Positions 22,759 to 26,089 of a stretch of DNA of 32,000 nt are shown here, in pieces. Origin of the DNA: Promethearchaeota archaeon. Lineage in GTDB: Archaea; Asgardarchaeota; Lokiarchaeia; Sigyniarchaeales; Promethearchaeaceae. Below the pieces are notes generated by a model. That model worked only from the letters and a program-made list of their open reading frames with translations, was not told the DNA's origin and did not search any database. Location of the stretch: positions 60,001 through 92,000 of the forward strand of contig JAFGBS010000014.1 of assembly GCA_016933055.1 (NCBI GenBank), written 5' to 3'. The number at the start of each line of letters is the position of its first letter. Position 1 is the stretch's first letter. A program made the position numbers and the translations under genes.

Positions 22759-22817
22759 ATAAAATATAAATGCGAAAAAACTCCTTGTTATATGTAAGTA
22801 AAGGGAGATCCAAACTT

Positions 22818-23039
22818 ATGGACCAAAAACTCGAACATATATATGAAGAATCAAAAACTATAGGCTCACTTAAAGAGTATATTGTTAAAGAAAAACGCAC
22901 TGTGAAGGATTTACTCCACGATTTAAACCTAGATGATAAATATTTTGCTATCTTGGTTGATGGAAAAAAAGCAAGATTGGATACAGAAATAGCTCAAGGT
23001 CAATCTATCGTTGTGCTCCCGAGAATTGCTGGTGGATAA
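22818..23039 (+). CDS. ThiS/MoaD/SAMP2-like ubiquitin-like protein (~73 aa)
   Basis: TVKDLLHDLNL; AILVDG; C-terminal VVLPRIAGG; ATG at 22818 preceded by AAGGGAG. Confidence 0.85.
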   Translation: MDQKLEHIYEESKTIGSLKEYIVKEKRTVKDLLHDLNLDDKYFAILVDGKKARLDTEIAQGQSIVVLPRIAGG

Positions 23040-23175: not shown

Positions 23176-24834
23176 TTGAACTTTGAAGAGACAGATGATC
23201 TGAGACCAAATGAGAAAATACTTGAACTCTTGGATGACTATTTTACTCAAGCTGGAGAAATTACTTCACATAAGAGACGAGAAACTATTTTTCGTGATAT
23301 GATCAGCCGTCTGATTGAGTTAATTAATGAACTAGCAATAGATGGTGATTCATATGAAGTGGGAGAATACCTCTATTCTGCTGCATACTACCTTGAAGAA
23401 TTTGACTTTAAAGAAGCCCAAGAAATATATGTCCAAGCAATCGGTTATTATGACGAATATCGTATAAAGGAACAAAAATTGGGAAAATTTGAAGAAGCTA
23501 GCTGGGTATCCTACAAAATTGCGGAAACATATCATGATAAATTAGGAGATCAGCAATCTGAAAAAAAGTATATTAGAAAATGCATTGAATATAAAGAAGC
23601 CCTATATGATATTCTGAACGGTTTTAGTAAACCCAGAAAGTTAGCTATTTTAGTATATAATTTAGGAGAATTAAATGCACGTATTAATAATTGGGAACGT
23701 GCAATAGAATATAATAACCTAACTCTTGATATTGCCAAGGAACAGAAATTTTACGACGTAATAGCGAATACTTATCTGAATTTAAGCGATATTCATTTGT
23801 TTATGGATAAAGAAGACAGATCTCGAGATTATATTGAGGAGGCACGTCAATTTTTCTTAAATGAGGAAAAACTCTGTACACAAACTAGACAATTTCGCCA
23901 ATTATCTCAGATTTATCAGATATTAAAAACTATTAATGCGGAAATAAATGATCAAAAAGAATTTGTAAGATTTTCAAGGAAAGAAGCGAAATCTTACATT
24001 GATTGTGCAAAACAAATCCACCGTGAAAAATTAAATTATTTTAAACTCGCAAATTTTTACAAAGGAGCTGCCGTTTGTTTTAAGGAGACTGATTATCTTG
24101 AATGTGCTACTTGTTATTATCTGGCAGCACGTATTTTTCAACAAATTGGGGAATTAACGCAAGCCAATTCCTGCTATAGTGAAGCAGCGGAATTATTTGA
24201 AGAGGTCGGACTTTATAAAAAATCAATTGAATTATATTGCTTAGCTGGAGATGCTAGCTTAAATAATAATGATTTGGAGTTTGCGATTGAAAAATTCATG
24301 AATGCCTTTGACCTCCTTTCTCGAGAGAACATTAATTTCCAAAAAAATGAACTAGCAAGAAAAATCGAAACAAATCTGATGTTACTAAGTAATATTAATG
24401 CGCAAGAAAATCGATTTTTTATCGCAGGTACCTTACTTCTTGAAACCTTGTTCTATTATAAAAAATCAGGATTGCATAAATCACAGAAAGAAATAAATCA
24501 TCTTTTCAAAAAAATAAAAAAATACTATTATTTGGAATATAAGGAACATGAGGCCTCGAGTAAATCGTCGTGGGTTGCTTATATGCTTGCTTTAACAGCA
24601 ATTGCTCATATCAGCTTAGAACAACTAGAAAAAGCCAAGTCCCTTATTTCACGGTTAAAAGACCTAGAAAATAACTCACAGACCATAAAAGCCTATAGAG
24701 AAATTACAGAATTGATTCTTCAAGCAAAAAATAATGAAATTAAGTTTACATTAGGGCATTTAGATAAGAAAAGCAAAAAAATATATTCCGGATCCGAAGA
24801 GATCAAACTTTTTAATAATTTATTGTTTTACTAA
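23176..24834 (+). CDS. TPR-like helical protein with two alpha-SNAP (NSF attachment protein)-like segments
   Basis: aa ~62-140 and ~291-345 match the alpha-SNAP repeat pattern (GKF..A......IAE.Y...L.D; A.....A...FK..D..E...C...A..I....G); TTG start. Confidence 0.6.
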   Translation: MNFEETDDLRPNEKILELLDDYFTQAGEITSHKRRETIFRDMISRLIELINELAIDGDSYEVGEYLYSAAYYLEEFDFKEAQEIYVQAIGYYDEYRIKEQKLGKFEEASWVSYKIAETYHDKLGDQQSEKKYIRKCIEYKEALYDILNGFSKPRKLAILVYNLGELNARINNWERAIEYNNLTLDIAKEQKFYDVIANTYLNLSDIHLFMDKEDRSRDYIEEARQFFLNEEKLCTQTRQFRQLSQIYQILKTINAEINDQKEFVRFSRKEAKSYIDCAKQIHREKLNYFKLANFYKGAAVCFKETDYLECATCYYLAARIFQQIGELTQANSCYSEAAELFEEVGLYKKSIELYCLAGDASLNNNDLEFAIEKFMNAFDLLSRENINFQKNELARKIETNLMLLSNINAQENRFFIAGTLLLETLFYYKKSGLHKSQKEINHLFKKIKKYYYLEYKEHEASSKSSWVAYMLALTAIAHISLEQLEKAKSLISRLKDLENNSQTIKAYREITELILQAKNNEIKFTLGHLDKKSKKIYSGSEEIKLFNNLLFY

Positions 24835-25682
24835 ATTTTTCTCAGTTCTCTACGAGCTTTATGCAGATCTCGATCAATCCCCCAATAAATTAATCGAGGG
24901 AAAAAACGCTTTATTAACCAATATAGTTTCGTATCCCCTGGAAAAATCATAAATTTCTTTTTTAAAATGCCTTTTACAAATACTTCTGCGACAATTTCAG
25001 GTCGTAAGAGTTTTGAATGTTGAGAAATAATTTCGCATTCCTTTGGTTTGAATTTATTCTCTTCAGCAAAGCCCGGTGTATCAGTATCAGGAGGAAATAA
25101 TATAGAAATCGAGATATCATAGGGACGTAATTCATTACGCAGAGATTCTGCTAATCCTACTAATGCAAATTTTGAAGGGGCATACGCTACATACCCCATT
25201 ATTCCTAACAATCCTAATAATGATGATATAAATACAATATGTCCTTTCTTCGCTTTAATGAAATAAGGAAGAATAATTAAAGTGGGAACTAGCTGACCAT
25301 TATAATTCACATCATAATTATTGAGACAATCTTGCAAAGTTAAGGCTTCCACGTATTGAGGAAATGCATACCCCACGCAATTGATTAAGAAGTCTGGTGT
25401 ACCATTTTTTGTGATTTCATCATCCAAAAATGGCTTTAATTTTTTGTAATCGGTACAATCACATGATAGAATTGAAATGCTTTGTTCATTGGAAAATTTT
25501 AGGGATTCACATTCCCTTTGAATAAGTTCCAATGAAGCAATTTCCCTAGCTATGATCAAGACATTCGCACCCAATTGCACGAATAATTTCGATGTTTCTC
25601 TGCCAATTCCTTTTGATCCCCCACAGATAATTACAGATTGTCCCTTAAGTATTTTTTTTCCTATGTATCTTTGAATATTCAT
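24831..25682 (-). CDS. Short-chain dehydrogenase/reductase, 3-ketodihydrosphingosine reductase (KDSR/Tsc10)-like
   Basis: GGSKGIG; S154 and Y167xxxK171 catalytic residues; PPDTDTPGFAEEN; ATG at 25682 overlaps the upstream stop (TAATG). Confidence 0.8.
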   Translation of the reverse strand: MNIQRYIGKKILKGQSVIICGGSKGIGRETSKLFVQLGANVLIIAREIASLELIQRECESLKFSNEQSISILSCDCTDYKKLKPFLDDEITKNGTPDFLINCVGYAFPQYVEALTLQDCLNNYDVNYNGQLVPTLIILPYFIKAKKGHIVFISSLLGLLGIMGYVAYAPSKFALVGLAESLRNELRPYDISISILFPPDTDTPGFAEENKFKPKECEIISQHSKLLRPEIVAEVFVKGILKKKFMIFPGDTKLYWLIKRFFPRLIYWGIDRDLHKARRELRKI

Positions 25683-26089
25683 TATTGGATAACTCCTATA
25701 TATTGGGTAGCACTGATGATGAAGATTGGACCCATTATTAAACAAGCAAGATTTATGAAAATGTTCAGAATAGCATCTCCCACATTTGTGCTGTACTGTT
25801 TATTTTGAAGATTAAAGGAAATATCCACTAGACCGAGAAAAATCAGACCCCCTGAAACTGCGATTGTTAGAATAAATCCATACAGCTTATTATTTAATAC
25901 GCCTATTGCCGAAACTAGTAAACCCGGTGTAATCCAAAATAAGTCCGGGAGAGGAAAGGATCGTTCATAAGCAAAAAAAATATCACTTCTTGAGGGATTT
26001 TTATTTTCAACCAAGAAGAAATAAATCCAAAAACTTGCCATGCCGATCGCAAATATAATTTCCAAGATAGCTAGTAATATGAGTTTCAT
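25682..26089 (-). CDS. Small 4-TM membrane protein translationally coupled to the SDR
   Basis: Four hydrophobic segments; polar ERSFPLPD motif after TM1; TAATG stop/start overlap. Confidence 0.8.
   Translation of the reverse strand: MKLILLAILEIIFAIGMASFWIYFFLVENKNPSRSDIFFAYERSFPLPDLFWITPGLLVSAIGVLNNKLYGFILTIAVSGGLIFLGLVDISFNLQNKQYSTNVGDAILNIFINLACLIMGPIFIISATQYIGVIQ

Follow-up and report, generated by a model that had tools for sequence, protein, structure and literature searches.

The window analysed here is a stretch of 32,000 nucleotides from a Promethearchaeota archaeon (contig JAFGBS010000014.1; C22:60001-92000 of genome G000, which is 3.76 Mb in size and 91% complete). On its minus strand it encodes a 283-residue short-chain dehydrogenase/reductase (SDR), P0001 (24831..25682, with the ATG at 25682 and the stop at 24831-24833), which resembles KDSR, the 3-dehydrosphinganine reductase of eukaryotic sphingolipid synthesis. 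Directly upstream and also on the minus strand lies the gene of a 135-residue membrane protein with about four hydrophobic helices (25682..26089). Sphingolipids are held to be a trait of eukaryotes and, patchily, of bacteria; no archaeon is known to produce them.

An intact KDSR-like reductase

The window gene is an intact classical SDR of the KDSR-like subfamily. The Pfam profile PF00106 (adh_short) matches it with 129.9 bits (cut-off 26.6), and at an E-value of 1.1e-37 the assignment is not due to chance. An earlier note on this DNA had called it a classical SDR on the strength of two quoted peptides; both are present, and the catalytic tetrad N126/S154/Y167/K171 is kept. The cofactor loop reads GGSKGIG and is followed by Arg46 after strand beta-2, at the site that marks classical SDRs of NADP(H) type. 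Beyond the active site, residues 197-215 form the lid signature PPDTDTPGFAEENKFKPKE, which follows the KDSR pattern PPDTDTPGF..EN..KP.E. In an alignment of ten Asgard, bacterial and eukaryotic sequences, the GGSxGIG loop, Arg46, the four tetrad residues and the lid motif are invariant or nearly so. An alternative start codon, TTG at 25745, 21 codons 5′ of the ATG, is unlikely to be used because homologues are 277-288 residues long and the 21-codon stretch falls within the upstream open reading frame (ORF). No transmembrane segment was found in the SDR, where a hydropathy scan flags only the core beta-strand at 147-168.

The best single-domain match in the PDB is Cryptococcus TSC10 (8jat, 1.1e-22), aligned over residues 13-246, through the lid that follows the active site. 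When 1.84 billion cluster representatives were searched exhaustively, 445 matched at E <=1e-30, among them proteins of 320-340 residues in clusters named KDSR-like (Orbicella faveolata) and 3-dehydrosphinganine reductase (Dictyostelium purpureum). These two named KDSRs are among matches with E-values of 1e-41 to 1e-44, and identity to the eukaryotic clusters named as KDSR by their source is 37-44%; in a direct BLASTP comparison the window SDR and the coral protein are 38% identical across 242 residues (E 4e-57). The lid motif reads FPPDTDTPGFAEENKFKPKE in the window SDR, FPPDTDTPGFENENKNKPEE in the coral protein and YPPDTDTPGYKQENLTKPEE in that of Dictyostelium, and at the level of sequence this likeness to named eukaryotic KDSRs holds. 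The 13-mer PPDTDTPGFAEEN, which the earlier note had likened to human KDSR, was compared with the named coral and Dictyostelium proteins, human KDSR not being among them. The window SDR thus carries the lid signature and has its closest similarity to named KDSRs, both marks of the KDSR-like subfamily. The family as such is already known, and the JGI pipeline labels many of the homologues 3-dehydrosphinganine reductase.

A coupled membrane protein specific to Asgard archaea

The TAA stop of the membrane ORF overlaps the ATG of the SDR by one base (TAATG). Across Asgard loci, that of the same genus excepted, the 135-residue ORF is the only conserved neighbour of the reductase. Of 14 relatives whose loci were retrieved by coordinates, 7 have it next to the reductase in the same orientation. 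The same holds for 16 of the 80 named loci described below, with the cultured Promethearchaeum syntrophicum MK-D1 among the 16 and bacterial records contributing none. One of the 16, L037 (RXIL01000144.1), is binned as the euryarchaeote Ca. Methanolliviera hydrocarbonicum; it holds a Lokiarchaeial cluster of a second SDR (SDR2), the membrane ORF and the KDSR-like gene, and its reductase branches inside the Asgard clade. The contig is probably misbinned, the other possibility being a recent transfer.

In a sample of 301 genomes of the phylum, strong matches to the membrane ORF occur only in families that also hold the reductase, and about 26 of the 34 genomes with both genes have them side by side and co-oriented. 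In the family that is sister to the window's own (f2; the window's own family is f1), 28 genomes have both genes, 14 only the reductase, 9 only the membrane gene and 18 neither; as these genomes are related and not independent, no statistic is attached to the counts. Five of the nine copies of the membrane gene found on their own contain a stop codon (G008:C90:2451-2846, G150:C83:19920-20315, G165:C208:2214-2480, G168:C14:24350-24745 and G189:C26:31555-31953). The membrane ORF tends to carry internal stops where no KDSR-like gene was found, a pattern that suggests joint decay of the module.

Homologues of the membrane protein are almost wholly Asgard hypothetical proteins. A Pfam scan assigned it to no significant family, and a language-model search gave DUF8058 as a lead (score 0.94), backed by just one precomputed PF26247 tag among 120 homologues, so that the likeness to DUF8058 is weak. 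The bacterial loci hold no counterpart of it; a 129-residue ORF upstream of the Acidimicrobiia genes was considered as one and rejected, being soluble and unrelated. The membrane protein may anchor the soluble reductase or feed it substrate.

Some loci of the sister family are more elaborate. There, a second SDR of 270 residues lies upstream of the membrane ORF (L017:7034-7843, L016:9815-10633, L025:9881-10693), and a 526-residue protein without a Pfam match (11 loci) and a 368-residue protein similar to NAD_kinase/DAGK_cat (9 loci) are encoded nearby. Almost none of the genomes with this extended module has a gene similar to serine palmitoyltransferase (SPT).

Bacterial relatives lie in operons with SPT-like genes

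Genomes of GTDB species were scanned with an alignment of the subfamily, yielding 80 named loci. These include Promethearchaeum syntrophicum MK-D1, Ca. Lokiarchaeum ossiferum and one Helarchaeote, together with many Chloroflexota, Spirochaetota, Acidimicrobiia and Acidobacteriota, whose proteins are 45-62% identical. About 25 bacterial loci have, directly after the KDSR-like gene, on the same strand and often overlapping it, a gene for an alpha-oxoamine synthase (AOS), the family to which SPT belongs; AOS genes are present in 32 of the 56 bacterial loci. The AOSs that follow the reductase are 45-48% identical to the Asgard SPT-like protein and 35-38% to its KBL-like paralogue, and the SPT model gives three of them 524-538 bits. 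The spirochaete loci encode, next to the reductase, an AOS, a PP-binding acyl carrier protein (ACP) and an AMP-binding ligase, a set that matches the way in which known bacterial SPT clusters deliver acyl-ACP. Through guilt by association, these operons make a strong case for the prediction that the KDSR-like subfamily reduces the product of an SPT-like enzyme.

An SPT-like gene elsewhere in the genome

The earlier note had stated that the window itself has no SPT, and tblastn for an AOS indeed found none there. The genome-wide search that it had called for was more rewarding. Among ten class-I/II aminotransferase matches in G000, two are AOSs, one of which, a protein of 410 residues on contig C6 (G000:C6:333762-334991), has SPT as its best NCBIfam model (471.5 bits), ahead of the BioF/Kbl subfamily (402) and KBL (392). 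In the PDB it matches the SPT structures of Sphingobacterium multivorum best (3a2b/8guh, 371 bits), any KBL or BioF structure scoring at most 267. The second AOS is of KBL type and 37% identical to the first. The SPT-like gene is flanked by genes for an HAD hydrolase, MutL, MutS and an MFS protein, and not by a lipid cluster. The window SDR is the obvious candidate for the step after this enzyme.

Two genes of possible sphingolipid degradation were also noticed in G000: a GH116/GBA2-like gene (G000:C17:63063-64142, 203 bits) and a weak, partial match to a neutral-ceramidase-like domain (G000:C17:211492-212082, 40 bits) in a 670-residue ORF. A search for alkaline ceramidase found no match in the genome, the control genomes being equally silent, and one for DAGK_cat found marginal matches only (24-27 bits).

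Distribution among Asgard archaea and functional reading

At a threshold of E 1e-40 or better, the reductase is present in all six sampled genomes of the window's own family, in 42 of 69 of the sister family, in the single genomes of families f3 and f4, and in one of 21 of family f24; no other Asgard family of the sample has it. Outside the window's class it occurs in 1 of about 225 Asgard genomes sampled. Clear SPT-like orthologues, at least 54% identical, are found only in the window's own family (5/6) and in f16 (3/11), and a tier of 46-51% identity is found in f7 and f29. In the window's family, six genomes out of seven have the reductase together with the SPT-like gene. Both cultured species, P. 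syntrophicum MK-D1 and L. ossiferum, appear to belong to this family, and each carries both genes, unlinked.

The best-supported function of the window SDR is the reduction of a 3-keto long-chain amino ketone, a prediction that we favour because the genome holds an SPT-like AOS and because bacterial KDSR-like and SPT-like genes share operons. The mechanism that we propose is as follows. The SDR, of NADPH type, would reduce the 3-keto group of a long-chain 2-amino-3-ketone, the product of the unlinked SPT-like AOS of contig C6, to give a 3-hydroxy sphingoid-type base. Itself soluble, the reductase would probably work at the membrane through the coupled upstream protein with four transmembrane helices (4-TM protein), which could provide in trans the anchoring or substrate-presenting role of the fused helices of eukaryotic KDSR. 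The gene would have entered an ancestor of Lokiarchaeia from bacteria, probably Chloroflexota-like ones, where it is operonic with an SPT-like gene. More tentatively still, and with the odds somewhat against so specific a proposal, Promethearchaeaceae, including the cultured species, could make sphingoid-type bases through a bacterially derived SPT-like/KDSR-like pair in which the reductase is a two-component enzyme with a separate, Asgard-specific 4-TM anchor.

A number of results weigh against such a pathway. The activity of prokaryotic members of the KDSR-like subfamily is itself a prediction. The window SDR reaches none of the NCBIfam equivalog cut-offs, scoring 81 bits on the Bacteroides-type model NF049977 (KdsR) against a cut-off of 400, and the SPT-like AOS likewise stays under the SPT equivalog cut-off (471.5 vs 640 bits). 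Neither a ceramide synthase nor another N-acyltransferase came to light in the genome, where bCerS was not searched for; TLC/Lag1 (PF03798) had no match there or in any of 14 control genomes, which makes its silence uninformative. Our literature search found no report of sphingolipids from archaea. Reductase and SPT-like genes are never linked in Asgards, and their co-occurrence is patchy and restricted to the window's own family. In the sister family an SPT-like AOS is found in 1 of 69 genomes (G270, 46% identical and SPT-best by NCBIfam), the remaining AOSs being of KBL type (TIGR01825 about 485 bits vs 358 for SPT). In f7, f16 and f29 there are AOSs that score best as SPT (439-519 bits) and no KDSR-like gene was found (f7, G026:C1:2111982-2113145; f29, G232:C14:20401-21558; f16, G181:C81:11775-12920); an SPT-like enzyme without a KDSR-like reductase is thus widespread in other Asgard lineages. 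The patchy co-occurrence is the main reason why our confidence in the pathway is moderate and not high. The earlier note had proposed long-chain amino-ketone reduction, for synthesis or scavenging; the bacterial operons and the SPT-like gene of the genome support that proposal, and the Asgard distribution weakens it.

Because of the same patchiness, two other explanations stay alive. The enzyme could be a membrane-associated ketoreductase that works with the 4-TM partner on a different lipid or hydrophobic ketone, one that does not derive from AOS products, and that in the sister family is also partnered by the second SDR, the 526-residue protein and the NAD-kinase/DAGK-like protein. The context conserved across Asgards is indeed a membrane protein and not an AOS; of the 69 sister-family genomes, 42 have kept the reductase and one has an SPT-like AOS, and the additional genes of the sister-family loci fit as well. 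Set against this are the KDSR lid motif and the roughly 50% identity to operon-encoded bacterial members, which imply a conserved substrate class, and the fact that the window's own family does possess the SPT-like gene. We regard an unrelated ketone as possible, though unlikely.

The second explanation is a catabolic or scavenging role, with the enzyme running in the oxidative direction or recycling imported sphingoid bases freed from sediment sphingolipids by glycosidase- or ceramidase-like enzymes. The GH116/GBA2-like gene and the neutral-ceramidase-like domain of G000 could be read in this way, as could the sister family, which has the reductase and almost never an SPT-like gene; in addition, a 2026 preprint reports Asgard sister groups for the degradative enzymes GBA2, SGPL1 and SGPP1. 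However, Arg46 points to NADP(H), the usual cofactor of reductive biosynthesis, and the bacterial relatives lie in biosynthetic operons with AOS, ACP and ligase genes. The ceramidase match is weak and partial, and GH116 enzymes are general beta-glucosidases in archaea. A scavenging role therefore seems improbable to us, and reduction of an amino ketone made by the SPT-like enzyme is the reading that we retain.

Phylogeny points to bacterial donors

A maximum-likelihood tree of 103 rows (LG+G4, with SH-aLRT supports) was rooted on an unrelated SDR from loci of the sister family. It places the window SDR in a clade of 57 rows (support 100) whose deep branches are all bacterial, from Chloroflexota, Acidobacteriota and Acidimicrobiia. 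Within it, the 23 Asgard sequences occupy a nested subclade that also takes in five Spirochaetota sequences, themselves nested among the Asgard ones. The 14 eukaryote-type sequences group together (85), as sister (99) to a bacterial group in which the members with names are Nostoc, an Elainellaceae cyanobacterium, Sedimenticola and a Chloroflexota bacterium. The arrangement is unchanged in a tree of 86 rows under the LG+C20+F+G4 PMSF model (supports 100 and 93), and monophyly of Asgard and eukaryotic sequences, a grouping suggested beforehand by the earlier note, is rejected (delta lnL 145.5, p-AU 0.002). In neither tree, nor by the AU test, is the window SDR an orthologue by descent of eukaryotic KDSR.

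The best reading of these trees is that the gene reached Lokiarchaeia from bacteria, since the Asgard genes nest in a clade rooted among bacteria, and that it is not the forerunner of eukaryotic KDSR, since the eukaryotes branch elsewhere and the AU test rejects a joint clade. The earlier note had thus been right to expect close bacterial homologues and horizontal transfer, the Asgard sequences being nested among bacteria in both trees; its suggestion of relevance to the origin of the eukaryotic enzyme is not supported, eukaryotic KDSRs being sister to another bacterial group. A vertically inherited Asgard forerunner of eukaryotic KDSR might have been suspected from the identity of 37-44% and the common signature motif, and from a 2026 Nature paper that reports a global Asgard association for sphingolipid metabolism; KDSR is unnamed in its text or in the supplements examined, and SPTLC is unmentioned in those supplements. 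Such a forerunner is nevertheless very improbable, as the eukaryotes are sister to the group containing Nostoc and Sedimenticola (99 and 93), the Asgards nest within Chloroflexota, Acidimicrobiia and Acidobacteriota (100), the joint clade is rejected, and the gene is present in only that one genome of about 225 outside the window's class.

The five spirochaete KDSR-like genes (L052, L055, L058, L063 and L086) nest in the Asgard clade with support 95 and lie beside AOS, ACP and AMP-ligase genes. Their position in the tree indicates a putative transfer between Lokiarchaeia and Spirochaetota, in either direction.

Other genes of the window

The archaeal setting assumed in the earlier note is confirmed by the neighbouring genes, which encode S19e, Nep1/EMG1, RNase P Rpr2 and a SAMP-like protein, and by the best named homologues, which come from metagenome-assembled genomes of Promethearchaeota and Lokiarchaeota. 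A tetratricopeptide repeat (TPR) protein of 552 residues, encoded on the plus strand at 23176-24834, has a weak Pfam match to SNAP, the soluble NSF attachment protein (9.2e-08). Its gene converges on that of the SDR and overlaps the SDR stop by 4 nt; elsewhere it adjoins the reductase only in a genome of the same genus (82% identity). Also on the plus strand, 22770-23039 encodes an 89-residue small modifier protein of ThiS/SAMP2 type with GG at its end.

Implications

Our literature search found no paper that links Asgard archaea or Lokiarchaeia with KDSR or SPT. What is new here is the coupled, Asgard-specific membrane partner, the bacterial KDSR-like/SPT-like operon as likely source, and the presence of the pair in both cultured Asgards. 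With genes resembling those of the first and second steps in the family of both cultured species, the question of archaeal sphingolipids becomes directly testable. If the proposal were true, it would describe the first sphingoid lipid pathway in Archaea, with a split-gene analogue of the membrane-anchored eukaryotic KDSR. The conserved, uncharacterised family of 4-TM partners gains a concrete functional hypothesis. The phylogeny points to bacterial donors for both the Asgard and the eukaryotic lineages, a result that moderates recent claims that sphingolipid metabolism has a general affinity to Asgards; another paper considers SPTLC to be bacterial in origin.

Comparison with known systems

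The only characterised bacterial 3-ketosphinganine reductase, BT_0972 of Bacteroides thetaiotaomicron, reduces its substrate with NADPH, is not clustered with SPT and had its role confirmed in E. coli cells that also expressed SPT; it is about 16-30% identical to Tsc10 and FVT1 (PMC9278070). The window SDR is related to BT_0972 at the level of the SDR superfamily only, and is far closer to eukaryotic KDSR than BT_0972 is. The ceramide cluster of Caulobacter reportedly consists, in the work of Stankeviciute et al. (2022), of Spt, an ACP, an ACP synthetase, bCerS and CerR. It follows the same logic of AOS plus ketoreductase, and shares acyl-ACP delivery with the spirochaete relatives of the window SDR; CerR is a reductase of a different family that acts after N-acylation.

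The KDSR-like/SPT-like operons of Chloroflexota, Acidimicrobiia and Spirochaetota are the nearest comparison, their reductases belonging to the same subfamily as the window SDR (support 100, 45-62% identity). These operons keep the two genes next to each other, as opposed to Asgard genomes, where they are unlinked and where the reductase has as its partner a membrane protein not found in the bacterial loci.

Eukaryotic KDSR/FVT1 and fungal TSC10 have the same features of the SDR fold, namely GGSxGIG, the Arg after beta-2, the N-S-Y-K tetrad and the lid signature. They form a clade distinct from the bacterial-rooted clade of the window SDR, whose activity is predicted. Eukaryotic KDSR also has two hydrophobic additions, an N-terminal extension with a transmembrane helix and a C-terminal insert, both of which the prokaryotic proteins lack. 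Whereas these anchors are fused to the eukaryotic enzyme, the window SDR is instead accompanied by a separate, translationally coupled 4-TM protein.

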